A DNA stretch of 64,000 nt, from assembly GCF_000497125.1 (NCBI RefSeq), contig NC_090598.1:1178001-1242000 (forward strand). Direction: 5' to 3'. Source of the DNA: Spironucleus salmonicida (taxonomy: Eukaryota). The position numbers were made by a program, and so were the translations under genes. Positions 19,203-62,084 of the stretch are shown here, piece by piece (the first letter of the stretch is position 1; every line of letters begins with the position of its first letter). Under the pieces are notes generated by a model, which did no database searches, was not told where the DNA came from, and saw only the letters and a program-made list of their open reading frames with translations.

Positions 19203-19504
19203 TTTTTAATGTATGTATAGTTTTTATATATTATATAGTCTTTTATTTTGTTCATTCGTAATTATTTTAGTTGAACACAATAAACTTTGCCGAAAAAACT
19301 AAGGGCCCCCAAAGTGCAAAACTATAATTAAATAAATCTATAAATTTTCATATAATTATATTTCAATTTATAAGTTTTAGTATCTAAATACATGAGATTT
19401 CCTTATGTTTAATAAATAATTACATAATCTCTTTATTAAGCAAATATACAAATAATATACTATTTATTATGAGATTTATAAAATTTCCCTTCCAACAAAA
19501 TTTA

Positions 19505-22500
19505 ATGCTTTCAACATCGTTTGTTTTTAAGCGGATATCTTATGCAGAGACATAAGAGTAAATAACTAAAGTCGCATGGAATAGAACCGATGGATGGCTT
19601 GCTTTTGGTGGAGATATGGGATTACTTAGAATTATTATGCTAGAATTTTAGGATTAACATGACTTCAATCTATAGGGTGTAGCAGCCAGACCTTCTAGAG
19701 TATCTATTGATAGGAGATTAACTATACACGAAGGATCAGCAATAACGACAATTACTTGGAATGAAACTAAGGAACAAGTTACTACAGGCGATAATCGTGG
19801 ATCTGTAGTAGTATGTGGTTATTAATCTTCAAAATGGTCATCAGAATTTGTGAATGAATCAGTGTAATCTCCAGTTGTAACTGCAGTTTGGGCTTCCGAT
19901 TCATCTAAAGTATTAATTTTTTATCAATCCGGATAAATTCTTTTAGGTGCATCAACTGGTCATAAAATTTTATCTATGTAAGTTCGCTAACAGGAATAAG
20001 CGAAATTTGCTTTTGTTACAGATTCCAGAGTAGATATTTTTATGACTGGTTGGGAAACTAAAATCATAGCTTACAATTTTGATAGTACCGAAAAATATAG
20101 AATTTAATTAGGTGCTGGAGATAAATTTGTGGCAGCTAGTTTGCTAGAGTTTAAAGAAAATAAAGAAGATCCTAAAATTGTAGCAATTACTATGCAAGGT
20201 GAATTAATCATTTACAATGCTGTTTCAGGAGTTAGATTAATTTCTGCTCAGATCTCAATAATTCCTACTGATGTCTAGGTTTCTCCGAACGCACAGTATA
20301 TAGCAGTATCTGGTCAAGCATTAGAGCCTCATGGCGATTTATAAGGTTCGTCAGGCCCAGTTTAGTCTAATGCTGACTAATTAGCGGTAGTCAAACTATA
20401 TAGAACAAAAGATCTCGAGCATATCGCAACAATCAGAATTTAAGCCAAAATAGCAACCTGTATTTCCTGGGACGCCAGTTCTCTACGACTTGCCATAGGC
20501 ACTGATGGAGCCTTATATCTTGCATGCTTGCGACTAAGCTATCGTCATTTTATGCTATAAGACGGAACTGTAGTTTATTCTTCTGGTTCTTCTATAATCA
20601 AAACCTCAAACTAGATCGTTTCCGCCTAAAACACGTTTTAAAAGGACGAATGCATCACATTTTGGAAAAATCCTTCCACAAATTTTCATCAACGATACCC
20701 TCAATAATTCATCGACTAATGCGCCTGCGGGCCCTATTTAGCGATGCTCTGCGGCAGATCCGTTCTAAAATAGGACGGTAGCTACCGCCAGTTATCAAAC
20801 ATGACTTTGCACTCATCGGTAGGTGCTCCGACGCTGTCTTTAGACCTCAATTACACGCCATTTTTCATGGCAGGGTGCGAGAACTATCTCGTCACGGCCT
20901 CTCCCTCTCGAATTTCTATCTACGACATTCGCTTTTTGACCGGCGAAATCAAGTCCGAAAACGCTCAAATTGAGACCAAATTGGACCAAGGCCAAAACTA
21001 CACCGGAATCATCGAATGGCATGCGGATTCGAGCCCATTTGCGGCCGACAGAGAGCTCCACGTGGCAAAATTGAGCGTCAGCGCCGGAGTTACAGCTGTA
21101 TCAATCTCCAATAATGCGCTATTTGTAGCCAGGTAAAATGCGACGATTTAGCGGTTTAATTTGCCGAGTCTTCAAAGTAACGTAAATATTCACACTGGGA
21201 CCGTTTTGCGTGTAATTCGGTGCAATTGCAACGGAACGGCTGTCGCTGGCGTCAACGACGACGGTTTTCTGTCTGTCTAGTATACGAGCGATTTTATTAC
21301 GGGCGAAATCAAAGAAAACCGAGAGGTTAAGGACGCCAAAAAGAGCATTAAGATGATCGAGCGAGTTGAAGAGGAGGAAAAAGGAGACGATTTGAGCAAA
21401 ATGCTCGGATTCGATGGCGCAGCTCCAAAATCGACATACAAAGAATCATCCAAAAATGACAAGCCAGTCGATTTCAAACTACCCCAATGGGACACTCAGC
21501 TGACTGATATTTGGGGTATTTGCTGGAATAACGAAGATGCGAATATGCTTGCAATCAGCTCTAAACACAAGATATTTGTGCTCTAGGTTAATAAGAAGGT
21601 TAGGGAAGAGCCGATTACGAGTTCTGCTCATATTTTGGCGTTTTAGGGCTTGATAATTCATGGGGTGTATTTGGACGAGGCTGTTATGTACGGAGCTCCT
21701 ATGAAAGGCAGTTACAAGTAATTTGAGACGTAGTAGCTTAGAGATTTAAAAGAGCAACTGTACGGGAAAGTTGAAGAATAAGACGAGATTTAGCCAGTAA
21801 CGAACTTAATTAAGCTTTTTGGTCATGATTTGACTGATTATAATGTGAATAAGTAAACGCCTAATGTCACAGCAGGATTTGCATTTTTACAGCAATAAGT
21901 TTTTACACACCCTCATCTATATAAAATTGTAGCGGAGGCAGCTTTGCGAGATTTACAACTTGACATTGCGTCTTAATGCTTCGTTAGAGCATCAGATTAT
22001 ATTTCATATCATTTTACTGAGTATATTCGTAGAATTGGGTCGGATGAACTTAGAAAAGCTGAGGTTGCAGTATTTTTATCAGATTTCAAATTGGCTGAGC
22101 ATATTTTAACGAAATAACTAGGAAGAGTTGATTTATCGCTTAAAAATGATGAAGAGTTAGGTATGTGGATGAAGGTTCTGCAATAGCATAAAGACGCACA
22201 ATACAATGTATCGCATGCTGCTTTAATAACGGATGAACTCGCTAACTAAGCTCACCGTTAGGTTGGCCAGTATTATATGAGGATCAGACGTTATGCTGAT
22301 GCTGTTTCATTCTTATCTAAATCAGATGATATCTCACTCTTAGCGGAAGCTTTATATCGTGCAGAATAATTTGATGAATTAAGAACCCTTGCAACTTCAC
22401 TTCAACCTGACACTAATACTGAGGCTATTTTAGCAGTTTCAAAGATTTTGTCAAGAATTGGCGATGTCGAAGGCGCAAGTGTAGCTCTTTTGAGACTTAA

Positions 22501-23599
22501 TAGACCAGAGGAGGCTATTAAAACTTGTATTACGTTAAAACGGTTTGACAAAGCGATTTTAATTGCGTAAGAATTTGAAATGCTCGAAACAGTTGACAAA
22601 CACTTATCTGAATATCTCAGATAGCTTCTTTCTGCTGGAGACGATAAAGCCGCTCTCGACCTATTACGAAAAACAAACTAGGGTGAAATTGCTGCTTGTA
22701 TCATAATTTCGGCTGCAATGGAAAATCTTAAGTAAGCTATTGATGCCAGAACTTTCCCACTCAATCCGTCAGTTTTCAACAGAGTACGACGCTTAATAGT
22801 GCTTGCTGGTAAAGAAGCAACCACAGTATAGCGCTCAAACATCAACAGAGACCTGAGAAATAACCAAAACAACGATAATGCTCTTTTGACTCAAAATCAA
22901 ACGAATCAAACGATGAACTAGCTCTTACACGACGATGTGGTCAAAGACACCACACAGCAGCAATCAACCTCGTCTACACTTCTAGACGATCCATTGTTCG
23001 CAAAATTCGGAAATCACTCAAAATCTACTAACTAGATCTGGCGCTTAGTCAAACAGACCAGGTACATTGTTTTGGCCTCCTATATGCTCTACGTGAACAA
23101 GCCCCAATAAGCGCTTTTCCCTGCTATCGAGGCCGCCGGGTTCTACTACAAATTGCTCCAAAACTCAGCAAATCTTGACGAAGAATTCTGCTACTTTGCA
23201 AAAATTGCCCTTCCAATTGCTGTCTTCGCGGCGCTCCAAATCGAAGATTTCGACCTCGCCAGCCAACTCATGGAGGTCCTTGAGGCCGATGATGAAATTC
23301 CGTCGATCGAACGGGACCAGCTTGAGCAGTTAGCTGTAGATGTCTTTAGCAAGTTTCCGCCGAATATGTAATAGAATATACCAAAAGAAGCCATTTTGTA
23401 GTGTGAAAAATGCAAAAATCCGATGCAGAGATATTCTACCGTTTGTGTGTGCGGCTACCAGGCGAACCTGTGCAGCAGGACCGGAATGGTCATCAAGCAG
23501 GGGCACAAGATCCAGAAATGCGGGATGTGCAGCACGATGAGCACGATCGGTAAGAGTACTTTGCAAGTGTGCCCGATGTGCCACGAGCAGTTCGAGTGA
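19505..23599 (+). CDS. IFT121: Intraflagellar transport protein 121 / WDR35 (~1364 aa)
   Basis: FVFKRIS..ITKVAWNRTDGWLAFGGDMGLLRII, ITWNETKEQVTTGDNRG, HPHLYKIVAEAALRDLQLDIASQCFVRASDY, TPR-like solenoid, C-terminal CxxC zinc ribbons ending CPMCH; ends GAG TGA. Confidence 0.9.
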
Positions 23600-33583: not shown

Positions 33584-34571
33584 TAAATTTCGGAAAGAAA
33601 AAGTTTTGTGAAATTTAAGTAAAAATGATATATAATTTATATTGTAAACAATATATTAAATAATATTATATTATATGATAATTAGTAAAAATTTATATTT
33701 CTGAAATATAAAATTTAATACAAATACCATTTCATTATCTCATGATTGTATCTCTTTTTCATCGCTTATAGTAAATTTTATCTTACATATACTTAAATGA
33801 AAAACAATCGATATAAACTCGTTATTATTATTATTTATTGTTCCGTTTTAATAAACTTTATTAAATTAATATCAATAATTTGTTTAAGATAAAATAATAG
33901 GTTTTATAAAACTATTAATAATGTAAAATAAATTTATTTATCAAGCTTATATGTTAATGTAATTTTAAAGTATTAACAAAAATTCAATGGTAATATATAA
34001 ATACATTGGTCTCTTTAAATCATTAATTTTAAGATATATAAACTTAAATAGCAATACCTTACTTTAAATCTTTTCTAGCTTTATTATACTCAAAATCAAA
34101 ATCAAAAATATCAGGTTTTAATACTAGAATATGCAGGTAATAAAAACTAGCTGCATATTATTTTCCCCTTATTCATATACATAATTATTGATACAATACT
34201 GATAACATTCACTATTATTATTTGCTATTTATGTTTTAATGTTTAGCACATCTCAATTTACCATTAGTATAGTTAAATGTGATAGGAAATTTAATTTATC
34301 CTTTAAAAACTACACTCTTAATTGTTAATGTATATAACGAGATATAGGTATTATATACTTTATTTTAAAAGTATACAAATGATTTAATTAATTAATGCTA
34401 TATTTATTTATATATTAAGAATCACAATTAAACGTGCATTCTGTAATATTATTTATATTACTAAAATAATCCTCTAAATTAAATAATTTTCACAAAATTA
34501 AGAATAATGTAGTACTTACTCATGCATAATTGTTAAATCTAATTAAAAATCGTTTACAAAATATCTAAAAA

Positions 34572-37500
34572 ATGACCAACTAGGTTTGCTTAGATGGAAA
34601 TACTGCAGTTGCTATGGCGTGTCATAAGTTTATCAACTTTTCATGTACGTTCCCAATTACTCCTAGTTCCACTATGGCAGAATTGGTTGAGTAGTATGCT
34701 GCTTAGGGTAAGAAAAATTTACTCGGTGAGGACATTGTTGTGAAACAAGCATAATCAGAACTAGGTGCTATAGGAACCTGTCACGGTGCGCTTGTTACTG
34801 GTGCATTAACTGCTACATTTTCTAGTTCATAAGGCTTGCTTTTGATGATTTCTAACCTATACAAAATTGGTGGCGAAAAGGCTCCATTTGTCGTTCATAT
34901 TGCTAATCGTAGTGTAGGATAAACAACAACAAGTCTGGCCACTGATCATACAGATATTTATGCCATTGAAGGTACTAATTTATCTGTTGTTTAAAGTGCA
35001 AACGTCTAAGAAGCATATGATATGGCAGTTTGTGCTCACGCAGCTAGCATCAGTGCCAGAAGAGCTGTTGCTCATAGTTTTGAGGGTTACAGAGTTTCTC
35101 ACTAACTAGAAAGTCTTGAAATAATGACGGATGACCAATTAAGCCAATTCATAGACTATTAATCATTAATGGATTGGAAGAATAAATCTGTAGCTAGTAC
35201 TGATAGACCTTATGCATAAAATGTTGGTCTTGGAGGTGAAGTAGCTATGTAATTGCTTGAAAGCTAGAAACATGATATTAATAAGGTTTGTTAAAAGTTT
35301 GAAAAGTACTTTACCCTTCTTAAATAACTTACTGGTAGAAGTTACCATTGTTATGAATATTATGGTGATGCCAACCCTGAGACAGTATATGTTCTCATGG
35401 GTAGCTCTACTGGTACTGCCATAAATGCTGTTACAGAATTGAACAAAAGTGGTGTAAAATGTGGTGTTGTTAAAATCCGTGTTTTTAGACCTTTTGATGT
35501 AAAAATGTTTTCTGATGCTATTCCTAAGAGCACAAAAGTCATTGTTGCACTTGACAGAGCAGGTGAGCTTGTTCAAACTGGTGGAACCATCTATAGAGAA
35601 GTATGCGCGGCTATGATACAGATGAATAGAATCAAAAGTATTGAAGTGGTAACTGGTGGAAGGTACGGTTATTTGGGAAAAGAGTTAATGCCAAAAGATA
35701 TTTTGTCTCTTTCTGAGATATTTGGATCGAAAAATTATGGTACAATGCCTAAATAGTTCACTGTAGGTATAAAAGATAACCTAACAAATTTATCTATAAC
35801 AGACTCTCCCAATTCTGCTAACTTTGAATTAAAAATGCTATCAGATCTTGTGTCCTAAACATTGTTATATGGTATTGGCTCTGATGGTACTATCGGTGCA
35901 GCAAGAAATGCAGTTTAAATTTTAAAGAATACAGCTGATAATGTTTAAGTTCAATGTTAATTTTAATTTGATGGTAAAAAGTCAGGTGGATTAACTATGT
36001 CACATATAAGACTTTATAAAGGTGACGACAAAGAAATTTAAAAGTCTCTTCATAATGCTTAATATGATATTTAAGCTGCTTAATATATTGGTTGTCACTG
36101 TGAAACATATCTTAATAGATATAAAACAATGATGTAATAATTAAAACCTAACGGTGTTGTTGTTCTAAATGTGGATAATAAAGGTGATTTACTTGAATAT
36201 GCTAATAAACTTCCTGCATAACTTAAACATGATATTGCTGAGAAAAATGGCAAACTGTATATGGTAAATGCTAATAAAGTTTCTATAGACTGTGGAATAC
36301 CAGGAAGAACTAATAATATACTTTTGCTATTTTATTTCAAATTTGGTATGACTCAGCTTATTAAATTTGAGGATGCTGTCGAGGCTATGAAAGATGCAGC
36401 TAGAAAAACTTATGTTAAAGCTGGATAAAAAGTTATCGATAATAATATCAACGCAATAGATGCTACAGTCAAACTTATAGATTAATGTTATGTCAACTAT
36501 GATGTAAAAGAATGGCTTAACTCTAATATTAGTATATCTGGTAATGAAAAAATCAATGATTATTGCCCAGATTACGATAAGTTCATGACAACTGTGTTAG
36601 ATCCTTCTTTTAGAAGAGAGTTTGATCACATTACTACTAAAACTATGCACGAATATAATGGCGGCTTCTTCCCACCAGGTTATGGTGCTTATGAAAAATA
36701 GACATCTGCTGTAAAGGTTCCTAAATGGAATTCATAAAATTGCATATAATGTTCTATATGCGCAAGTGCCTGCTCTCATTCATCTATTAGACCATTTATT
36801 TTAACAGAGAATGATAGTCCCCCAGAAGGATTTTAATCTATTGAACTGAAAGGAAAGCATGAGTATGGTAATGGTGCAAGATATAGTATCTAGGTATCTG
36901 CTGCTGATTGTAGAGGATGTAACGTCTGCGTTAAAGCATGTCCTAAGTAATGTTTAGAAATGTCTGACGTGTAGGAAGAGTTGAAGAAATAGTAATAATT
37001 TGAATGGGCTAGATCAAATCTTTACAAAAATACCGAAAATGTCGATGGTAAGAAGGCTCCATTAAAAGATCTAATGACTAAGAATCACTATATTGAATAT
37101 GCTGGGTCCTGCCCTGGTTGCCCAGAATCTACTATGTTAAAAATATTAACCTAAATATCTGGTGAAGCTATGTAAGTATCTGTTGGCGTCGGTTGCTCGC
37201 TTGTTTGGGGGCAATATAGTATGATGAGACCAAATACAATTGATAGACATGGCAGAGGTATTTCGTCAATTTCCAGCCTCTTTGAAGATGGTTCTGTCTT
37301 CCATTGGGGATCTGTTATTGGTAGAAATAATGTCAGATCTCAAATCAAGCAATTCTTGGTTGACAACATCGAGAATATCACGTGGGATAAAAACGTATAG
37401 GAAATTACCAGAGGAGTGCTCGAGCATTTTGATGACCCATCACAGTCCTACAAGCACGCTACTGAGCTTCGTAAAGCTCTCAAAATCGATAATTTCCACA

Positions 37501-38312
37501 TTGGTGACAAGAACGACATGATTTTCCCAGGTTCGCTAACTGATGAGCAGATCAAACTTTCGCCCAAGGAAGAGGCCGAACTCAGCCAGCTGCTGCAGAA
37601 AAAGGTAAAGTTGACGGAAAGCACATTTTTGACCTACGTGAAGCTCAATAATCTGCTCCTTTCGGCCCACAATAACTGGTTTTACGCCGGCGATGGCGCG
37701 GTGTTCGACATCGACTTCAACGGCGTGGACCACATTCTGGCCAAGGGCGATAACGTGAATCTGCTCGTTTTCTGCAACCAGGTCTTCGCGAACACGGGCG
37801 GCCAGCTATCGAAGAATTCGTTCCTGGGACAGGTGACCAAAAACGCGTACAACGGCGTCAGCGCGCCCGAGAAGCAGCTCGGGCTCATGATGATTTCCGC
37901 GTACGGGAAGCACATCTACGTGGCACAGGTCTCGTTCGGCTTCAACAGGCAGCAGACGATCAGCGCGCTCAGGGAGGCCGAGGCGTTCAACGGGCCCAGC
38001 ATTGTGCTATGCTACAGCCCCTGCATCAGCCACCTGATCGATGGCGGCCTGCAGAACGTGGAGGTGCAGCAGAAACTGGCGGTGGAGAGCGGCGTCTGGC
38101 CGCTTTTCAGGTGGAACGGTGGAGCGGAAAAGGGCCAGAGGCTCAAAATTGACGGAAAGAAGAAGATCGGAGTGGATGAATTTATCTGCAACGAGCAGAG
38201 GTTCATGAGCCTGAAGAGCAGGAACAACGCTAGGTTCGAGATGCTCAAGGGGCAGCTCGAATCGAACGTCGCAGAAGTTCAAGAGAGAATGGAGGCGTTG
38301 AAGGTGATGTGA
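34572..38312 (+). CDS. PFOR: Pyruvate:ferredoxin oxidoreductase (1246 aa)
   Basis: LDGNTAVA, FPITPSSTMAE, GIGSDGTIGA, two ferredoxin motifs CIQCSICASAC and CRGCNVCVKACP, GSCPGC, TPP-binding GDGAVFDID, YSPCISH. Confidence 0.97.
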
Positions 38313-38534: not shown

Positions 38535-39021
38535 AATTCACTTTGCCATGAGCTGGAAGGCGGTGCGAGCCGGGACAGTATTCGCGTACAGCTCGCCACC
38601 GCGCGCGGTGAAGGAGAAGCTGAGGTCCATGGGCGTGCGGCCCCCCTGGATCGGCAGGGAAATGGATATGGGGATGGAGACGCTCACGCGCTACCGCCGG
38701 TCCCGGTACTCAACACAGTCCTCGTTTCGGATGGTGCTGACATGGCGGGAGCCGAGGTCGATCCGGAGGCACTACTCGCCGTTGCTGACCAGGAGGTCGT
38801 CACGCCCCTAGACGAAGGTGGCGCTGCAGCTGAAGCGGCCGTTCAGCGTGAGAGTACACACTTGGGGAATCATTACGGAAGGGGGCTGGAATATCGGGTT
38901 GTAACGGGGTATTGAGGCGGTATGTGCTCTACTTTCCACACTACAGGATCTCTACTCGGGGTGGGATTGTTGATTAAGGGCATCGGGTATACTTTCGGTC
39001 GTAGAAACGCAAGTTAGAATA
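38535..39021 (-). repeat. 487-bp module, inverted near-identical copy of 46328-46814
   Basis: Reverse complement matches 46328-46814; only one substitution noticed (tacagc vs tacaac). Confidence 0.95.
38538..38873 (-). CDS. Orphan beta-rich protein (111 aa), copy 1
   Basis: MIPQVCTLTLNGRFSCSATFVQGRDDLL...TAFQLMAK; strong G/C third positions; AAG TGA terminator; the copy difference is synonymous (CTG/TTG) in this frame. Confidence 0.8.
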
Positions 39022-39262
39022 CAGGTTAAATACTCAGTAAGCTTTAATAATATATAGATGGATATAATTTTAAATTAAGATTTTCTTACAGATGTGAAAG
39101 CTTCACTTATTGCTAATAGTAATATACCATTATTCTTTTATATATTGATATTTAATTATTAAATTATAAATGAATTGTTATCTAAACAAAGACTTAAAAC
39201 TTAAGCTCATACTAATCGTAATTATTATATATGTAATAATACATATTTTATTAAAATTCCAA

Positions 39263-41167
39263 ATGTCATCCAGTTCTACAAAACTTGCTTTTCAATACGC
39301 ACTTTCATAATTACCGATTTAACTGCCATCTACTCTTTAAATACCAAAGATTCCATCATAATTATCAGCAAAATAGTCATTAGTTCATCTTTTAAATTGT
39401 TTACCTTTAGATATTTAAAGTTAAGTGTGCAGTTCTTTAGCATAATGTAAAAAATGCGGATTCCACGGCCCATATTCAGTAGTTTCTGAGCACAGAGTAT
39501 GCTTATGTGGAAATAATTTAGAAATCATTATTCCACCAATGATTGAAGGAACTGTCTATCAGAACAGCAACAGCGTATACACTAAGAATCTTACCAGCCT
39601 TGTCACGTTTAAGGAATAAAAATATTATTGTATAAGATTATTTAAAGACAAAGTTTTATTAAATGATGGAGATTAAGAAAATTTGTTAAGAGAATCTGAT
39701 TTTGAATTATATATTGAAAAATAGTAAGGACCAATCTTTGATTAAATCGGAAGAGTTGTGTTGGCAATTTATGTAAATCATGTTGGTAATAGTGAAAGAA
39801 CAATAGAATTTAGCAAAATACAACCAAAGCCACGTATTTACATGAATAACAATGAATCTGCAATTAATTCAAGCATAAATTATACAATCCCCTAAAAAGA
39901 AGTCCTATAAAAAACAATTTATGACGTATAACGAAAGTTTCCTAAGGATTTTTAAATTAATCCATTATCTAAAAAACTGTGCTGTTTTAATTATGATAGT
40001 GCGCCATCTCATCACTATAAGTATTGTGAATTTTGTGGATGTGGATGTTCACTTACTAGTCACTTTTCATTACTATCTATTATGTGCTTTATACCTATTT
40101 TGCTAATAATAATAACTAATGTTGTCTTACTTCTAGTCTTAATATTTTTACGTTTACCAGACCCTGAAGTATTTATCACAGATAATCTTATAGTGAGAAA
40201 TAATGCTGCAATAGCCATGAATCTTAATAATGCAACATATTCGACTTTCATAGCAACTTAGAAGAGCCTAGATTAAATTTATGAAATTTATACATAAAAT
40301 ATTATAACAGAATTATTATAAACTGATCTACTCTAAAATTAAAGTCCTTTGGTCATAAAAGGTGTATCTAGCGATTTAGTAACCGTTAACTAACTAACAG
40401 TAGATAATGTTACAGTTACAAATTAGACATAATTTGACGGAAACTCAGTTTCTACTTAATCTATTACTTTCTAGCCTAATACAAATGTTATTTTTGGGCA
40501 AACACCTAATTTTAATGGGCTTATTAGCCTTGTAGATGCAAAAATTGTAGACCTTACTGCTTCATCCTTAAATTTTACTTAGTTTACATAATCTGGAATA
40601 TTTTCATCACCTTTAAAAGTAAATTCATTAACCACAAAAATCGGTAAAATAACTGAATTGACAACTAAATCTCTTACTTCCTAATAGTTAACAGTAGATA
40701 CTTTAAAAGTTACTGGAAATTCTATTTTGAGCTAAATTAAGACAACAAACCTTACAGTTTAGTAATCCCTTTCAGTATCTAACTCAATTGTAAATCTTCC
40801 TTAGCTCCTTAAATTTAATTCAACTGGTAGAATTTCTGGAGATTTAAATATAGAAGGAATTTTATAAACCGGTTAAAATACTATTTAAAACTTGTAAATA
40901 ATTGATTTTAAAGGCACAACATCAACAATTTAATCATTGAACACTTAAATTATCAATGCTGCTGAGAGTAGACTTGATATATAAAATTTAATATCTTAAA
41001 GTGCGCTAATTACAGGTTAAGCTGGAGGGTTAAGCATTAATGGAAATAAAATTATCGAATCTAATATAAATGGTTTATCTTTAGGTGCCAATAGTATTAA
41101 TTGCACTACATTTACAGTAGCAAAAAATCTAGATGTTGGCGTAGTTAATACCACAAGAATAAATTGA
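39263..41167 (+). CDS. Type II membrane protein: cytoplasmic zinc ribbon, one TM helix, extracellular beta-solenoid-like region (634 aa)
   Basis: CKKCGFHG-x10-CLCG at 39446-39511; Cys-rich juxtamembrane segment and TM at ~40065-40150; T/S/N-rich alternating hydrophobic repeats (LTVDNVTVTN, LTVDTLKVTGN, ISGDLNIEG); paralog of 60318-62084. Confidence 0.8.
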
Positions 41168-41561
41168 ATGAAGCACAATGTAATGGATTAGGAATAATTT
41201 ATTTAAAATAAATATAACTAATATTGAGAATTATCGGCATTAATAGTAAATTTATTATGATATGAGTTTTTTATTATTAATAATTAGGTAGATTCACTTG
41301 CTTAATCGAAAGGGCTAATCACTATTAATCAGTAAAATTTTAACCTATATAGAACTTAATATTAACCTTTAATTACAAATATAATGTATTAATTTATGTA
41401 TAGTTCCTGGTTAAATAATTTTTATTATTTCATGCAATCACTAGAAATGAAATTACAATTTATTAAATATAATAATGCTATAATATTTAATACTTGTAAC
41501 CATAATATCCAGTAAGTCGTCCTATAATAAGAATATAGAACCATTAAATATGTAAATGAAA

Positions 41562-42413
41562 TCATTCATTCGAAAGTTTTTAAAGCTTCACCTTTCTCAT
41601 TTATACTAATTTCACAGTTACAAAATAAGATAAAATTAATATTTAAACACTAATAATAATTCCTAGCATCCATAATGCTATAGTTTTTCTCGAATTATTT
41701 ATATGAGTTGATCTTTGATCTTTTTTGCATCCAATTTTATCTGGTGTAAAACCCGTAATGCATTAACACTTGTTATTATTTACTATCATATTTCTACTAC
41801 AATACTCACATGTATTATCTTCTTTTAAAAAATTATTCTATAATAGTCCATCACGGGAGCATTTATTTACACATTTACTATGATTACTTATAGCTACATC
41901 GAAATTTGAGCACAGTGTACACTTATTAAATCCTGTAATTGCCTGAACCATATTTTTTTAACATGTTGCACACTTCAAGGGTACCTTTTACAATATTTCA
42001 GAACCTATAGTGCATACACATTCATTATTTACTGTTACATAATTTCCAATTGGAAATAATGGACAAAGCATACATTTATGCGTTGAAACATCGTAATATT
42101 GTGCTGGAATAGTTCCACATATATTAACACATTTTCCTTGCTTGTTGTGTTGTTCATATGATTTACAAGCTATTTGACTAAGAATTTTATGAATATCTGA
42201 TAATCTAAAATATTAAACAACTAATTTTTTTATTTGTTCAAGAATTTATTATTCCTCTAAACAAATATTAAGTTATATATAAAATATAAATGAGCAAACT
42301 TTACCTAATTCTTTAAGTATATTATAGATAATAATATTAATATATTTATTCACTTTTATGTATATTCTAATAGTGATAGAAATTTGCAAAAATGACTTCG
42401 TATTAGTCTTCAT
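41562..42413 (-). CDS. Cysteine-rich membrane protein (CRMP/VSP-like); start uncertain
   Basis: CxxC and CxC motifs (CMLC, CVC, CATC, CTLC, CEYC, CQC), C-terminal TM IALWMLGIIISVQILILSYFVTV, basic tail MRKVK; the only in-frame upstream ATG (42413) gives an atypical N-terminus. Confidence 0.7.
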
Positions 42414-42574
42414 AATTTATATTTTATAATTACTATATAGTATAACTATGTAGTAATAGTTATTTAATCACTATTACTGACAAAGTTTAACATCAATTAA
42501 TTCGAGATGTTGAGAAAACAAATATAATCTATTATATTCTTAATTATTATAAATTAATTTTTTCATTTCTTTTA

Positions 42575-44619: not shown

Positions 44620-46041
44620 ATGAATTCAAATAGTCGCCTTTTCGCAAATGAAACTACAGAAAACGAGATTTAATGGAGAACAATTCTTGAATAATAAAAT
44701 ATTAGAACAAATTTTCATCTTTTAAGACCACTCAATCCCCTCTCATCATCATATTCATAAACTTGTGATATTTGTTCAAATCCAGCAATTTTAGCATGTA
44801 TTTCTTGCCATTCTAAATGGTGTTCACATGAGCATTTTCTTCTAGATGATGAACCAGTGCATTCTCATATATGTTCCAAGCTTACGGAGCTATGGTTTAT
44901 TGCTTATGAAAATAAGCATGGGAATGAAATTGAAGCACTTCTTACAAACAGTTCAGAAATGAAAATTGAAAGAGGATTGCTTATGGAGATTCGAAGAATT
45001 TGTTTGGAGCGGTGTAGTGGATATGTGGCTGATAGAAACTGGATTATGGCTGTAGCCCCTAGTTTAAGGGTAGTTGGTCTAAGTGAAAAAATATTTGGAA
45101 AGAGATCGTTAGAGTTCATTTCTGCAGGGCTTTTAATGGCAAAATGTCATTTAGGGCTCAAAAAATATGAATATGTAAACAGGCATTTGTAAGTGTTAAA
45201 TGTTTAGATTATGGATATTATTAATGATGAATTATAACGAGTTTCTGGATAAATTGATAAGAGATTAGTATTCAAAGAAGAACCAAAAAATTTAGGTGAA
45301 AACCGTATTAAATTTCCGTTCGTCCAAATTCCGATTAAGGTAATTGAAAAGATGAACAATGAAATTGTAGCGGTATAGGGTAGACTTTATCATCTTTTTG
45401 GGGCATTTTTCTAAAGCCTTGGAGAGAGTGAAGAAAGTATTGATTTTTTTGGAGCCTCCATATATTTTTTGTCGCTTGCATATGGACCTACAGCTCTTAA
45501 AACTACTCTGGGATATCTGGAATTGGGTAAAAGTATGCTTATTGGTTAGAAACCATTCCATTCTCCACATAATCCTAAAATTAGATATAGCGAATAAAAT
45601 GCTATTGTAAAAAAAGTCCTTAATATCGTTTAGTTTAGTGTTGATGTTTGGGATACTATGATACGGCGTGCTATTAATACTAATACTCAACTATTGTATG
45701 ATTTTTGTGAAATAGGTGAGCCTAGGCTACTTCTTTAAGATGCAAAAGCAATATCATCACTCTATGTAGGTACAGCAAGTAGCTATTATTGTTCGGCTTC
45801 AGTTACCTTAGCTTTTTTATTTTTATCATTTGATAAGGATTATGAATCTGTAGTAGAAGCCAAAATAGCATAAAAAGCGCTATAAGGATATTTTATATGG
45901 AATGATGAAATAAATTCTTAAGAGTATTAACGAATGAAATTTCTATAGAAAGATGTCTCGGACATACTTTCCATATTAGAAACACCTGATGTTATGAAGC
46001 GTATTGCAATTGTTGAGACAAATGCTAGATCAAGAGTGTGA
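44620..46041 (+). CDS. ZMYND12: ZMYND12-like MYND zinc finger/TPR axonemal protein (473 aa)
   Basis: CDICSNPAILACISCHSKWCSHEH...HSHIC; AVAPSLRVVGLSEKIFGKRSLEFISAGLLMAKCHLGL; SIYFLSLAYGP...TLGYLELG. Confidence 0.8.
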
Positions 46042-54812: not shown

Positions 54813-56558
54813 ATGGACTGGAAACCATCAGACGAAGAAATCGTGGAATATGCATAATATCTTAGTGTAGATTTGGATAAAAATCCTTAGTATAAATCTT
54901 TAATGGTTGAAGGACTAACTGCACCTCTACCAGAAGGATGGAAAATAGAAGAAAAGGGAGATGATGTTTTATACATATCTCCAAAGGGATAAAAACAATA
55001 AGATCATCCTTATGATGATATTATTAGATAAAAAATTTAAAGTTAAGTTTAGTAATAATAATCAACTAAAATAAGTAAAATATAAGAAGTTAAAATACTT
55101 AATAAATCGGAGCCACAATTGAAAGCAACATTGTCAGAAATTTAGCCTCTGGCTATATTTAAAAATATATTGCCTACTTAAGATGATATTAACAAAGCTG
55201 CAATATATTTCAAAATTTTAAATATCACCCCATCCCATAAGGTTTTATTAGTGGAATTTTTAACAAATAAATTGGAAGATTGGAATATATTTAAGTATAA
55301 GGATACTATATTTTTTCAAAAGAATAATATATCGTAGTGGTAACATCCACTTGAAGATTAATATCGCAAAAAATTTTTGGCATTGAATCTTTTAGAAACA
55401 ATGAAGGGAACACCGCCAGCAACAACTTTGCAACACACTCCATTGTTACGATAACTGACATAAGATAATTTAGAAACTATTCAAGAATAAGATGAGGTAA
55501 TTTCAGTAATTAAAATGAACTTAGATGATGAATTGAATAAACAATAAACATAAATATAGTAATAGGTATTAAGTGTCAGTGACTTAAATTTAAGCTAAGT
55601 TGAAGCCAAAAAACTTGAAAAATCATAAATTTATCAGTAATTGTGTTAAGAGATGATAAATATTAAAAGATAGCATGCAGAAAATATATAACATGAAATT
55701 TAAGTTCATCGATAAGAAATGGAGAAATTAAAATCAGAGCATTCTATTACTATTGATAGACTTAATAAAGAGAATAAAAATGAAATTGAAGTTAGTTTAA
55801 TTAAGTAAACATAGATTCTTAAGGAATTGCGTGAAAATTTGGAAATCGAAAGTTTGAATCTTAAAAATTTATTTACTATTGATTTGGAAGATATAAACAA
55901 GAAGCACATAATAGAAAAGTAATAATTAAATAATGTGTAAAACGAAACGTAGTGCTTATAATTTTAAATAAAGGAAGAGTAAATAAAAACTTAGAACTTA
56001 TAACAATAACTATTAGAAATTTAAAGCTAAGCTTCCATTATTACTTAATAGTTGATTAAGTTTTAGGAACTATCATAATTATAGATTCCATCACATTTAA
56101 AATCATTATTTGATACGTTGGATAAATAAGTATTAAGAGAGAAGTAAGTATTAAGTGTAGAAAAAGCATAAATTGATGCGTTAATAGCAGAATTTAGATT
56201 AAAAAATGCAAATAAAGCGGTTATTTCGCGCAAAATTATATTATTTAGAGATTAATAGTTTGAAATTCTTCAAAAATATAGCTTGATTGAAATTTTAAAG
56301 AATAGTGTCAAAAGATCATCTTAATAACATAATAAGGATTCTTTTAGCGACTTTCTTCATGAAAATGATACATAAGAATAAAAAGCAATCGATACTATTG
56401 TGGAAATTATTTTACATGATAAATATATAAAGATTAACTAATAAGTAAACGATTAATTAGAACATGTTAATGCCATAGTTAATACACCAACTAGAACACC
56501 TATATATAATGTTACAAATGAAGATTGGTTATGTTAATTTAAAAAAGGGTTATAGTGA
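54813..56558 (+). CDS. CEP164: CEP164-like WW/coiled-coil centriolar protein (581 aa)
   Basis: PSDEEIVEYAQYLSVDLDKNP...EGLTAPLPEGWK...DHPYDD matches the CEP164 N-terminal module; second degenerate copy (DW...SQWQHPLED) follows, then coiled coil. Confidence 0.8.
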
Positions 56559-56666
56559 TTTTAAGTAAAATTAAATTTTGTACTAGTACTACGTATTTTA
56601 ATGATTTAAAGTTTATATTAATTAATATTATATTAAATATTGAGTAAAATATAAATTCTATAAATT

Positions 56667-58280
56667 ATGCTTCTTAATCGTCCCTCAAGAACATTATCTG
56701 CAATTAGTAATAAAGCTGCATTGTAAATAAGCAAAAACTAATTATAACCAGTAACATCAAAAACTACAAAAAGATCTTCATCAACATAGAAAAAATAATT
56801 AAATACTCAATTCGCTTAAAAAGATTTGAATACAGATGAATTATTGAAAAATCTAATCACATTAGATTCATAAATATCTGAAGTAAAATAAATTGGACAA
56901 GTTAAAAAAGATATTACTAAATTTACAAATATTGGTATTTAAGATATTTTACCTATATAAATTAATAATGAAGATAACAATTAAACGTCATAAAAATAAT
57001 AAAATGACGATTAAGAACTTAATGAACATATGTCTGTTGAAGAAAAATTAAAGATGTATCGTAATAACCCACTTTTATTTTAAAAAGTTTTGTTAGAATC
57101 TAAAAAAGTTAAATAACAAGAAATAAATAGATAAAGAGAAGAGTAAAATAAATTTAGATAAAAACATAGATAATAAATTGCGGGAGATATACCAATACCA
57201 CCTATGATTTCTAATTTTCTATCTCATAATAAGAAAGAATTATAATCTGGAAAATTCTAGTATGATAAACTTATGCATAATAGACAGATAAGAGGATAAT
57301 TATTGGAAGCATAAATAGATGATACGTTATCTAGAAAACGAAGATTAGTGGAAGTTGAAGAAACATTAAAGTATCCAATATTATTTCAATAAAAACGGGA
57401 AGTTTTACTACCACGTATTTATGCCCTATAAAAATAAAAGCTAGGAATATATCTTTTTTTAGTATCACGTATATCAGCGATTAATAAATAAACATGTAAC
57501 TATTAAAAGTTAAAATTTGAGAATATTAAAATCACAAATGGATCTAATCTTATTATAAAGTATTACAGAGAGTATGCAAGATTATAAAGAGAGAATAAAG
57601 TTTTTAATGCTAAATTAATCATAACCTAACATCTAAGATATTTTAGAATTAAAAATTAAAAGAATATACGTCAAAAAGCATTAGGTAGTATAAAGTATCT
57701 ATTATTTTAAAATTATAATGATAATGTATTTTTAGCTTCTATTAACTTGTTTTATCAGGTGTAATATGATCTTACTGAATCTCTATCTGAACTTAATATT
57801 AAAAATATGGCTAGAATGCAGATACTAAGAATGTATTTAAAACATAAAATAGATGAAATATCTCTTCATATTTGGATATAAAATAGAGAAAAGTTTCTTT
57901 AGGTTACACTAAAGCGATTATAGAATGATCGAAAAAAATTGAAGGAATTAAAATAATTTATGATTTAGAATCCTGCAGGAAAGATAGTCTAGCCTGAGAC
58001 TTCAGATGACTTTGACCTGCTAAAAAAGCTATAATTTTCGGACATTGAAATTACTAGTGCCGCAGAGGCAATTCTGTACGCGATTCTGAGTACACAGCAA
58101 GACGAGCTGCAGGACCGGTACGTCCAAAATAACAGTCCGGCGCAGTTGAATATCACGGTCGTCAACCTTCTTCCGGACCAGGATACGGTGGAACGATGCT
58201 ATCATGCAGTCAAGGCTAACCAGGATGTGTTCGAGTGGGCCCGATGTAGTGCGGTAGGACTGATGGTTCCCGACGAGTGA
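56667..58280 (+). CDS. Hypothetical coiled-coil protein (537 aa), paralog of 58658-60268
   Basis: Start and stop in frame; shares EEKLKMYRNNPLLFQKVLLES and INLLP/INLIP-type C-terminal segments with the paralog; ends GAG TGA. Confidence 0.75.
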
Positions 58281-58657: not shown

Positions 58658-60268
58658 TCATTTATACTCTTCTTCAGGCTAGAGTAGTACGACTTCTTGG
58701 CCATCGAGCCAGTCCTGAAGGTTTTACTTGCGCCGCACGACCCATAGCATCTGCTCCAGGTAAGCGTCGGTCGGAATGAGGTTTATGGTGTTCACATTGA
58801 TGGCGCCTGGTTGCGAATTAAGCAAATAATTCTACTAAAGATCCTCCTGCATGGCCTTGGACACCCGGAGAACATACTACCAGGACATTTCGAGTTAGGT
58901 CTCTACCGGTAACTCTAGCTCAGCGATGCGCGCCTAGTCCTACTCCATAGTTGGTAATACTGGCTTATCAGGCGGATACAGAGCGATAAACTGTTTGAAT
59001 TCCTTGATCTTGCGAGAATCAGCCTAGAGCACGCGCATTTGCCGGGCGATAAAATGGTCTTTTTCTGTCTTCCAAATTTGAAATGCAGAGTTCTTCTAAT
59101 ACCCAAGAAGGTAGCTCATCAGCACATGGACCCTGGCGTTATTTTTTGTGTTTAAGTCATGAACACTCTGTACTATAAGCTCCTTGCTACTGGTGAAGCG
59201 AACTACTGCACCTAGGAAGCATTGTTGGTTGTAGTTCTCAAGAAGGAGCGCCTTTGCCGTCCTTAGTGAGCTAATTCGGTTGTTTTTGTTGCGCCTGTTG
59301 ACGTAAATCCTAAGGTTTCGTGTGATAAGGAATGCTGCTCTGAGTTCAGCCTGCTCTCGGTTGAATTGATGTCGATTGGAGAGACCTCTGAGGATAATCC
59401 CTTTGGCCCAGAGAATTAGGTTGTTGCTACGCTTAATCTTGTCGTATACCGCTCCCACCTGCCGCAAAACAGCAATGCGGCTGGAAAAGAAAAGGTAGAC
59501 TCCTAGAGTATTGCGCTAATTTATAAATATCATCGGTAGTATCGTTGAGATCTTGGGTTGCGAAACATTGTTCTAGGCATCGAACTCTTCTCGCTCAAGC
59601 AGATTTCGCTTCCGGGACAAGACATTATCAATCTATGCATCGGTTAACATCCCCTAATACTATCGTTTTGCCTATAGGCGTGATTTTCGCATAGCATCCG
59701 AGATGTTCTGAGCAAGATTATGTGTCACAAAATTATCAATGAATTTAATCTATGGCAGTCCTCTACAAATCAAGTTACGATGCTGTTTGCGTTACACCAA
59801 GTGATTATTGTACGTATTAATGGCCTCCTACCGTTGGATCTGCTACGACTCAAGTACGAATTTTCGCAAAAGGTCAGGATGTTAACGCAGGATCTTGATT
59901 TTCTCCTACATGGGGATATTGGCGTCCATAATGTTATCATTAGTTGCATTTTCGCTTTGATTTTCCTACGCAGCCTCAGCCTTATTCAGAGATACTGGGA
60001 GAATGTCGTTCAACGAAAACTGCTACTATCTCGCTTCCTTCGGTACAACATTTGACTGCTGTTTTACAGTCTGAATCTGGGACTCGAGTGAGTCCATGGT
60101 AGTCTGCAGCTACTACGTGTCCACAAGCTGCTTTTAAGTGTGGGCGGCATTTTTACGATTATACTTCACTGACCGTGTATTGCTAGAACGATTCTAAGCC
60201 ATGGTTGCTGCAGCTAATTGGTTATACAGTGTGATCGTAGGTGATGGCTTTTGAACCGAGTCTATCAT
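58658..60268 (-). CDS. Hypothetical coiled-coil protein (536 aa), paralog of 56667-58280
   Basis: QEKIKILRQHPDLLRKFVLES; C-terminal INVNTINLIPTDAYLEQML; includes track ORF 59096-59467. Confidence 0.75.
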
Positions 60269-60317: not shown

Positions 60318-62084
60318 TCATCGCTAAACTATTCTCGGTGCCACTACTGTCGTACTATTCGTACTTCCTACCACCACAGTGTCACCAGAGACTGCTATGA
60401 TACCCAGCTATAGAGCTTGATCAGTAATCGCTGGTTATCCTGCCAGGATAAGGTCAGTGCACCTGAGGGACTTTACTTCTAGATTAGCAATATTTGCAGA
60501 CTTGTAAATAGTTATACCACCACCCAGATCGTCTGTGGTTAATGAACCAATCGTACTGTGGGTAAAGACTCCTGTGGAAGAATTAAGACTGGTTAAACTA
60601 GTCGCGCCTGACACAACCAGATCTCCAGTGAGTGTATTAGCCCCAATAAATGAAAGAGATGTACCTAATTGCAACGCTCGGGTGGTAAAAATTCCCTATG
60701 TTTGAACCACCTAGGAAAATACTAGATTTGGTACAGTAATCCCATCACTGAGTGTGAGGGAACTAGTTTGCAGTGCAGGAGCAGACAGTATAGTTGTTAC
60801 TAGGTTTTCACTATGAAGCGCGTACGTAGTAATATCTATACACTCTAGCGAATCAATCTAATCTTGTATTGCACAGGACCCGGTAAATGTAAAGCTTTTC
60901 ACCGTAAGTGCACCAATATTGGCTGTTTAGAATGCAGTAAGGTGAGAAAATTTCGCGTTAGTAAGCGTTAAGGATGTCGAAGATCCGGTTGTGAATTAGG
61001 CAGATGATATTTCCGTAGCGGCTAAACGCCCATTATTTACTACAATAAATGATGTACGAGCTGTTTGTAGGGTCTTAGTTGCTAGGGCAAAATTAGACGA
61101 TGAGAACTCTGTATCTACAGTGGCTGTATTAGACTGTGCGATATCTGTCTGGATGGACTCTGTTATGATTGATAGCTAAGGTTATTGTTGCGAGTGAAAC
61201 TAAATAGCTGATTGAACTCCGTTCATGTGAACTAGTAAAGAAGTATCTACAATAAGGTCGTCCACAACAAGAGTACTCTGATCTCCAATCATAAAAAATA
61301 GGAGACACATATGTATCAGAAGACCTAACGATATAATAAAAAATAAGGCAAACACGACAAGGCTGGGAACGTTACAGTCCATGGATATTAAGGAATCATT
61401 ACCGAATACCTAGATGAGGTGATGTTTTTCGTCACAATCATCATCTGAATGCAACACTGCCGAGTTATTTAAAACGCAGGTATCCTATCTCTGTACTAAC
61501 TGGTCGTTTGTAACTTCCATTGCAGGAGCTACGCTCTCTGGAAGGAACTCATATGCTGCCAGTATGCTATGAGATGGGTACAAAATCTGTCGCTGATAAT
61601 AGATGATATATTGCACACCGCCATACTAATTAATGAAGAAACTGTCAGTAAGAATCCGAATAAGTTACGACAAAGTCTAGGATTCCAGTACTCTGGTAGC
61701 AGAACCATCCTACAGTGTAAACACTGAACCCGTATCATCAGCAGTTATACAAGTTCCACCTCCAAGAACAATCGCACCAACTTCGTAGCCTTTCGACACT
61801 TGAACCTAAGACGTACGGATAATACGGAGCTATGGAAGCTTACCACGCAGCTTTCCTCCACACTAACATTAAGTACGCGTAGATATAACCGCTACATGTC
61901 CTCTGAAGCCGCATTCAGAACATGCGGCGTTAGATGAAGCGATCTACTCAGCAATGTCCTCTGGAAGCTGGTTCAAGGAATCAGCTAGAATACGATGGAC
62001 AGATGCACTAGGAGTTGGCTGGAATATAAACGGACGTGCAAGTAACGATAACGTATTGGCAAGAGCACGCTAAGGTCCATTCAT
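60318..62084 (-). CDS. Type II membrane protein: zinc ribbon, TM helix, beta-solenoid-like ectodomain (588 aa); paralog of 39263-41167
   Basis: LNQLPEDIAEQIASSNAACSECGFRG-x10-CQCG; TM LVVFALFFIISLGLLIHMCLLFF; LVVDDLIV; repeats IGALTVKSFTFTG, LTGDLVVSGAT, IANLEVKSL. Confidence 0.8.

Follow-up and report, generated by a model that had tools for sequence, protein, structure and literature searches.

What kind of protein is encoded by gene A, an open reading frame (ORF) of Spironucleus salmonicida whose product carries a Cys- and His-containing N-terminal part (N-part) and a long Thr/Ser-rich C-terminal part (C-part) on either side of a single transmembrane segment? The gene lies in a 64,000-nucleotide stretch of contig NC_090598.1 (positions 1,178,001 to 1,242,000; hereafter the window, G000:C3:1178001-1242000 in our numbering of the 14.5-Mb genome of 42 contigs). 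A first-pass annotation had proposed an unrecognised type II membrane family, with a cytoplasmic zinc ribbon and an extracellular beta-helix-like stalk, and had pointed to a divergent paralog 20 kb away. In this report, we describe gene A and its paralogs B and B' as a family with two conserved Cys/His sites and a five-residue repeat, the second site and B' being features absent from the earlier annotation, and we weigh what the C-part may build and on which side of the membrane it may lie. The features of gene A are as follows, in window positions.

39170-39262, forward strand: upstream in-frame extension of 31 residues from an ATG at 39170, with a signal-like hydrophobic run; no read cover
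39263-41167, forward strand: gene A, a 634-residue single-pass membrane protein (code 6), with an exact match in public collections
39362-39445, forward strand: helix-LP-helix segment, residues 34-61, conserved with B; helices in low-confidence models
39446-39511, forward strand: C-x2-C-x14-C-x-C-G motif, probable zinc ribbon, C62/C65/C80/C82; four of four Cys invariant in A and B
39560-39892, forward strand: middle beta-rich region, residues about 100-210; conservation with B undetectable (z -0.2)
39983-40087, forward strand: second conserved site, C241-x8-H250-x4-C255-x19-C275, a possible CHCC metal site adjoining the membrane
40070-40150, forward strand: single transmembrane segment, residues about 270-296, with Asn285 mid-segment; lone hydropathy peak and model helix 277-295
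40151-40342, forward strand: membrane-proximal segment (residues 297-360), of which B conserves two short motifs
40343-41164, forward strand: pentad-repeat region, residues 361-634, a probable beta-helix rod from repeat statistics and models

The window is read with NCBI table 6, under which the frame of gene A is uninterrupted for 634 residues, with 45 TAA/TAG codons translated as Gln. The first-pass annotation had this ORF correctly, but not its remark that a standard-code ORF track hides it: the exact protein is already annotated in NCBI, UniRef and EukProt and is present in MetaClust as well, and it forms a singleton cluster. Gene A is a genuine, annotated and uncharacterised gene. Contigs of four of four probable RNA runs from one study, whose RNA status is a guess, cover patches of the gene, and all four miss its 5' end and the stretch 41261-42500; because the cover is patchy and lacks the 5' end, neither expression level nor start can be read from it. 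None of the listed sources carrying the A sequence is recorded as RNA.

The family is defined by comparison of A with B, for which the following features are needed.

60318-62084, reverse strand: gene B, 588 residues, a paralog with A's layout by BLASTP, shuffle tests and conserved Cys/His
61857-61922, reverse strand: B zinc-ribbon motif, Cys invariant relative to A
61374-61478, reverse strand: B CHCC site, with spacing equal to that of A
61290-61370, reverse strand: B transmembrane segment, from hydropathy
60321-61289, reverse strand: B C-part, 323 residues
58095-62132, no strand assigned: left arm of an inverted duplication (4 kb; identity with the right arm 99.6-99.8%)
G000:C3 about 1243744-1247789, beyond the window end: right arm, with B' (P0004), two residues different from B

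BLASTP aligned A and B over 630 columns at 23% identity (E 8e-13), and scores against 500 composition-keeping shuffles gave z values of 20.8 for the N-terminal 100 residues, 5.6 for the transmembrane segment with its flanks, 6.5 for the C-part and -0.2 for the middle region. These comparisons show homology between A and B at the N-terminal motif, around the membrane segment and along the C-part, and the divergent paralog first reported stands, on the minus strand; only the middle region lacks detectable conservation.

Conservation is strongest at the N-terminus, where residues 34-86 of A match B at 23 of 53 positions with no gaps. The Cys motif noticed in the first pass is present and reads in full C-x2-C-G-F-x-G-x10-C-x-C-G, with the spacing of zinc-ribbon knuckles kept in both proteins (C62/65/80/82 in A, C55/58/73/75 in B), and it is a probable zinc ribbon with putative zinc binding; family and PDB sequence searches with this segment gave sub-threshold matches only to Zn-knuckle families. 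An F-box identity was considered and set aside, as there was no match to PF12937 and only the helix-LP-helix half is similar by eye. The counterpart of the middle region in B models as a single four-strand meander, and a scheme in which two propeller blades per chain close a six-bladed ring in a trimer is unsupported, since the best match of this meander reaches Z 4.0 and the arrangement is common. Elsewhere in the window, the ORF at 19469-23599 (forward strand), a WD40/TPR protein that is IFT121/WDR35-like by eye, ends with C-x2-C-x10-C-x-C-G, in which the second knuckle, C-x-C-G, is the same as in A and B.

The second conserved site lies just before the membrane, where C241/H250/C255/C275 of A align without gaps to C203/H212/C217/C237 of B. 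The diagonal score of this alignment was reached in 1 of 5000 shuffles and its four Cys/His identities in 99 of 5000; the other Cys of A's cluster before the transmembrane segment are not conserved in B. Three Cys and one His at fixed spacing suit a metal site better than disulfides, and we infer a putative CHCC-type site.

The C-part has a composition of its own. It comprises 338 residues in A, close to the length of about 340 first given, of which 43% are Thr, Ser, Asn or Gln; Thr plus Ser make up 23% in A and 28% in B, a share that exceeds 17% in none of 58 control windows taken from 14 other ORFs. Hydrophobic residues account for one third of the C-part, charged residues for 12%, aromatic residues for 4-5% and Pro for about 2%, and the region is both charge-poor and Cys-poor (one Cys in A, three scattered in B). 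The simple alternation of hydrophobics read into it at first is not found: hydrophobic autocorrelation is negative at lag 2 and at lag 4 (z -2.8 in A, -3.1 in B) and rises at lag 5 (z 1.7 and 3.4), the pattern being the pentad h-x-h-x-x, where h is hydrophobic. At period 2.5 the Fourier power reaches 2.45 for A and 2.32 for B, values attained by none of 1000 shuffles of either, compared with 0.85 and 0.62 in the respective N-parts and 1.56 in the best of the 58 control windows; the signal begins at about residue 360 in A and residue 340 in B. In A, residues also recur identically at lags 5, 10 and 15 (104 identities together, against 79 expected from shuffles that keep the hydrophobic/polar pattern; 0/1000), and this comb is the best of eight period combs (0/400), with lag 20 flat. 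The rise at lags 5, 10 and 15 with a flat lag 20 fits a three-sided coil with five-residue sides, whose cross-section would not differ between a one-chain and a three-chain rod.

Structure prediction leans weakly in the same direction. An AlphaFold2 (AF2) model of A from a two-row alignment has a mean predicted local distance difference test (pLDDT) of 33, with strands across residues 363-600 and the best blocks (50-55) near residues 500-590; the N-part of B models at pLDDT 32. Foldseek found no PDB match to the A model at E <0.9. In a VIA alignment of the model to 48,161 chains, 66 chains reach Z 8, and all 50 of the matches listed align to the C-part (residues 300-634), led by UpaB (Z 11.9, root-mean-square deviation (rmsd) 4.2, 270 residues aligned), Vag8 (11.5) and EtpA (11.1), with Awp3b (Z 9.1, rmsd 3.4, 184 aligned), tailspikes, lyases and tapirin also among them; VIA Z values below about 13 are common for repeat proteins. 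Most of the listed matches, to judge by their titles as autotransporters, adhesins, tailspikes and lyases, are chains that we take to be beta-helices, and LpxD/GlmU-type chains, presumably left-handed helices, align at about 12 Å rmsd compared with 3.4-5 Å for the others. In the ESM Atlas, the neighbours of the A model are a 546-residue bacterial hypothetical protein (TM-score 0.78) and a haemagglutinin-repeat protein (TM-score 0.53), and feature neighbours at 0.81-0.85 serve as leads only. A Foldseek comparison with viral models returned many fibre and collagen-repeat proteins at TM-scores of at most 0.21 and rmsd of 16-58 Å and was not used. Two predictors thus lean weakly toward a beta-solenoid, and together with the pentad repeat they make the C-part probably a beta-helix; this much of the stalk first proposed holds as a probable reading. 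The searches turned up no sequence link to phage fibres or sarcoglycans.

The orientation of the protein is harder to read. A single hydropathy peak, with hydrophobic residues 276-294 at its centre and a Cys cluster before it, agrees with the first description, and B likewise has one transmembrane segment, of about 27 residues as in A. When a membrane anchor is internal and follows a long folded N-part, the usual orientation is N-in, and transmembrane segments of this length are common in plasma-membrane proteins. We consider it fairly likely that the N-part is cytosolic, because the anchor is internal, the C-part resembles secreted beta-helices and the cytosol is a fitting place for a site of three Cys and one His. 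The original argument, that the protein lacks a signal peptide and is hence type II, is weak, because CRMPs of this organism reach the surface with no recognisable signal peptide: S. salmonicida CRMPs carry N-terminal CXXC/CXC ectodomains, and one localises to the surface (PMC3916229; for signal peptide and surface behaviour also PMC11437800). Its premise is also doubtful for A, in which the ATG at 39170 would, if used as a start, add a leader that is basic and then hydrophobic, in its own AT-rich stretch and an A-rich context, with a 15-residue hydropathy of 3.42. Curated annotations have picked starts using RNA-seq and A-rich motifs. N-linked glycosylation sequons were dropped as a clue to topology, as the C-part of A holds 9 against 8.6 expected, which is chance level.

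With these elements, we tentatively propose a sarcoglycan-like type II stalk in which three intertwined chains would stand over a cytosolic zinc module, a possible reading rather than a probable one. A, B and B' would be low-copy, non-variant type II membrane proteins with the internal helix as signal anchor; the N-terminal 240-270 residues would remain cytosolic, their C4 ribbon and CHCC site binding zinc and making up a docking module, and the C-terminal 320-340 residues would cross to the outside. The membrane helices would gather three chains and set their register, from which the pentads would zip up away from the membrane. Every five-residue repeat would supply one side of a triangular beta-helix, Leu, Ile and Val pointing inward and Thr, Ser, Asn and Gln outward. 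The resulting rod would be stiff and roughly 15-30 nm long, and might act as a surface anchor or as a receptor binding a host or environmental surface; its Thr/Ser/Asn/Gln faces could take glycans or contact a surface, and the zinc module could link the rod to the cell cortex or to a partner in signalling. The presence of three genes argues for such a fixed anchor or receptor and against a variant antigen. Rod lengths of 15-30 nm for a triple helix and 8-10 nm for a single one are scaled from gp34, which spans 18 nm in 370 residues (PMC5537660), and from TLP-12, which rises 9.6 Å per 12 residues (bioRxiv 10.1101/2025.09.30.679562). We regard as unlikely a bolder version, a chaperone-free triple beta-helix receptor, sarcoglycan-like or phage-fibre-like, of independent origin in a diplomonad. 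It would link contact at the surface to the two cytosolic zinc-thiolate sites, which might in addition sense oxygen on the way from gut to blood, and it might include mixed A/B trimers; in that version no folding chaperone would be needed because the membrane helices set the register. If the proposal is true, these low-copy, non-variant proteins with a rigid rod and a cytosolic metal module would form a class of their own among surface or organelle proteins and would be candidates for an invariant antigen or receptor of a salmon pathogen; if they are trimeric, eukaryotes would have arrived at the sarcoglycan design by a second route. The importance of the family is restricted by A, B and B' being known from one species.

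Several observations count against an intertwined stalk of this kind. B shows no identity excess at lags 5, 10 and 15 (261 of 1000 shuffles reach its value), and runs of at least four pentads are marginal in A (52/2000) and not significant in B (292/2000). No residue of the AF2 model of A exceeds pLDDT 70, the Atlas model of A has a confidence of 0.42, and both monomer models show a single-chain solenoid, although single-chain models, by construction, cannot return an intertwined trimer. Asn285 in the transmembrane segment of A is not conserved in B, the charges flanking that segment are weak, and the chance-level sequons lend the outside location nothing; A's upstream leader and the signal-less CRMPs further weaken the inference of topology. 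The whole of T4 gp34 900-1289 lacks a period-5 signal (1.07), Gly is half as common as in gp34 triple-helix segments, no sequence similarity to gp34, gp35, gp36 or gp37 was found (z at most 1.9), and no chaperone (ICA/S74) domain was found in a genome search.

The comparison with known systems defines what is shared. The first-pass description of sarcoglycans is accurate: three chains fold together into a triple beta-helix that stands over a transmembrane bundle with a central Asn (PMC12871233, PMC13478489). A and B similarly have a single transmembrane segment followed directly by repeating short beta-strands, and A has an Asn in this segment. They differ in an N-part of 240-270 residues with two Cys/His sites and in having no C-terminal disulfide cluster, and the membrane Asn that sarcoglycans conserve is present in A only, as Asn285; no match to PF04790 was obtained, and a genome search for this family was empty even at E values as high as 10. 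The likeness to phage fibres lies in short strands, an aliphatic core and small polar turns, a trait unspecific to fold, and in composition, which resembles that of the triple-beta-helix segments of T4 gp34 (Thr plus Ser 24%, charged 10%, aromatic 4%; segments from PMC5537660, composition computed here); one of two gp34 segments tested shares the period-2.5 signal (3.41) and the other does not (1.45). Unlike these fibres, A and B are membrane-anchored and carry a long N-part. Protists build glycosylated triple beta-helices in the alveolate glycofibril protein TLP-12 (bioRxiv 10.1101/2025.09.30.679562), with a repeat of 12 residues in place of the five-residue period of A and B. The beta-helix fold itself is not new, as eukaryotic triple beta-helices are known from sarcoglycans and TLP-12. 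Pentapeptide-repeat proteins, which have an A-(D/N)-L-x-x consensus and a 20-residue coil in a quadrilateral beta-helix, share the five-residue period; a classical identity of this kind was rejected because there is no Pfam match, a large residue precedes the small one and lag-20 identity is absent.

One chain could also build the rod alone, as a right-handed parallel beta-helix adhesin or glycan binder with the same topology and place, about 15-20 residues per turn, a length of 8-10 nm and possibly loose packing into trimers. A and B resemble such adhesins (UpaB, EtpA, tapirin and Candida glabrata Awp3b) in being Thr/Ser/Asn-rich and charge-poor, and may work like a sarcoglycan or like one of these. 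These adhesins are secreted or C-terminally anchored, without a mid-chain helix under a zinc module. The matches of the AF2 model to UpaB, Vag8, EtpA and Awp3b (Z 9.1-11.9, within best values of Z 9-12), the poor LpxD/GlmU-type alignments, the two Atlas neighbours and the lag-15 identity peak of A, which suits a 15-residue turn, all point this way; but a monomer predictor forces the outcome, the matches come from a model at pLDDT 33 with 4-14% identity and Z values in the range usual for repeats, lag-2 alternation is absent, and no beta-helix family of Pfam, NCBIfam or PHROGs is matched, so that we rate the single-chain rod as rather unlikely, while keeping it in contention. Improbable, in our judgement, is a C-part that is no beta-helix at all but a low-complexity, mucin-like or otherwise folded Thr/Ser stalk whose repeat is a duplication relic. 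The low confidence of every model, the empty Foldseek search of the PDB and the high Thr plus Ser content would agree with it, and the one-third hydrophobic content, the scarcity of Pro and a pentad phase kept between paralogs that are 23% identical do not.

The remaining readings concern place and orientation. With reversed, type I topology, the Cys-rich N-part would be outside or lumenal and the rod a cytosolic, membrane-anchored and bactofilin-like scaffold. The leader of A ranks first among 1667 ATG-started open blocks (the window and L005 of G000:C3), the CRMPs provide a precedent for N-terminal CXXC/CXC ectodomains with no recognisable signal peptide (PMC3916229), and two Atlas feature neighbours (scores 0.82, a lead only) carry Bactofilin on 28% and 16% of their members. 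However, among the 283 low-GC blocks 2 others likewise have hydrophobic runs of at least 3.0, an upstream leader is missing from B and B', the start of B aligns with the ATG at 39263 and the collections contain the 634-residue form; in its low charge and Cys content the C-part resembles secreted beta-helices, and the basic cluster that follows the transmembrane segment of CRMP-1 is absent. We hold this inverted arrangement to be unlikely. A type II protein of internal membranes could serve as a spacer whose rod bridges the lumen of the endoplasmic reticulum, nuclear envelope or an organelle, or as a stress sensor in which oxidation or intramembrane cleavage frees or switches the cytosolic zinc module, after the logic of zinc anti-sigma factors such as RsiW or of MYRF. 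RsiW combines a cytoplasmic CHCC zinc site, a transmembrane segment and an outer sensor (PMC5358783), although the CHCC spacing of A and B differs from the ZAS motif. There are only three genes, unlike surface-antigen families, and an old model of B/B', SS50377_12916, is up in oxygen (log2 3.6, padj 5e-6) and without antioxidants (log2 1.8, padj 0.03), whereas another, SS50377_12914, is unchanged (log2 0.08) and the assignment of reads between these frameshifted, near-identical copies is doubtful (PMC6397501); A's own entry was not identified in the rows searched of the same oxygen-stress table. The first 49 residues of A and the first 34 of B contain no acidic residue, but acid-free starts are also seen in several other ORFs of the window, and the length of the transmembrane segment is that of plasma-membrane proteins. 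On this evidence an internal location is unlikely.

The distinction first drawn from the Cys-rich surface proteins of diplomonads is upheld, with about 2% Cys and a mid-chain transmembrane segment. Surface proteins described for S. salmonicida are Cys-rich, C-terminally anchored and organised in variant families, to the extent covered by the papers cited. A and B share with CRMP-1, CRMP-2 and VSPs a single transmembrane segment, CXXC/CXC motifs N-terminal to it and no clear signal peptide, and differ in the position of that segment and in having three genes instead of hundreds. A CRMP/VSP identity was rejected, as Cys content is 2.4% in A and 2.0% in B against more than 10% (PMC11437800), and 338 and 323 residues, instead of fewer than 100, follow the transmembrane segment. 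Of the published motif thresholds, at least three (PMC3916229) or more than five (PMC11437800) CXXC/CXC, A reaches only the looser one with five overlapping motifs (two CXXC, three CXC), and B has two.

Searches for relatives agree with the claim of an unrecognised family. Pfam, NCBIfam and PHROGs gave sub-threshold matches only, with no beta-helix family, PDB sequences gave none below E 0.3, and no confident family match was obtained. Against 5.8 billion proteins, A matched only itself (1 of 7591 candidates), B gave 2 matches of 8000 scored, none from outside the species, and the motif profile search that had been suggested for finding more members ran and returned only A and B forms (4 matches of 124 candidates). 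A also found only itself among 1.84 billion representatives, in a search that did not recover B and so would overlook relatives at that distance. No relative was confirmed among 171 metagenome, 52 viral and 116 genome-contig pattern matches in non-eukaryote genome collections, or found in phage records, and five protein queries of the genome itself returned no paralog beyond A, B and B'. Within the sensitivity of these searches, no relative of the family was found outside S. salmonicida. In the literature searched, which includes few subscription papers, four B-family gene ids have no mention, no relevant paper links diplomonads with a beta-helix (the sole match being unrelated by its title and the start of its abstract), no paper was found on a protist transmembrane triple beta-helix, and nothing relevant was found as a bacterial precedent for a zinc ribbon joined to a transmembrane segment; the combination of a beta-helix with two cytosolic Cys/His sites was likewise not found there.

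The duplication that carries B extends beyond the window. The inverted repeat (G000:C3 1236095-1247789; L004, L005) flanks a unique 3.6 kb holding a long minus-strand ORF, and may be either a recent duplication or an assembly feature. The source record of a near-identical copy of B calls it hypothetical protein SS50377_23086 (Spironucleus salmonicida), and older database models of B (P0005-P0008) break off or shift frame in the transmembrane region or later, so that the layout would have stayed hidden in them. Two old models of B have no Giardia gene assigned to them in a published orthology table. The GC content of the duplicated-arm copy B is 42%, against 28% in A. Beside B, the ORFs at 56601-58280 (forward strand) and 58658-60268 (reverse strand) converge on each other and are paralogs (29% identity, E 5e-70) belonging to an unknown family. 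The latter, which like B has a second copy through the 4-kb inverted duplication, is the GC-richer, as B is relative to A.

The immediate neighbours of gene A are of other kinds. Divergent from it lies a GC-rich ORF of 111 residues (38538-38873, reverse strand) with no Pfam match, which is covered by contigs of four of four probable RNA runs; two of these extend to 39000-39038, that is, 130-165 bases upstream of its ATG, over which a short ORF in another frame stops, and a long 5' leader, an upstream ORF or a longer gene are options for this cover. Convergent with A is a Cys-rich ORF (41562-42413, reverse strand) that is CRMP-like, with a C-terminal transmembrane segment and a short basic tail. 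Farther away, the ORF at 34395-38312 (forward strand) is pyruvate:ferredoxin oxidoreductase-like by eye, with a probable start about 59 codons into the listed frame, and, also by eye, the window holds a superfamily-1 helicase-like ORF (12776-15664, reverse strand), a zf-MYND/TPR-like ORF (44620-46041, forward strand) and a WW-domain coiled-coil ORF (54813-56558, forward strand).

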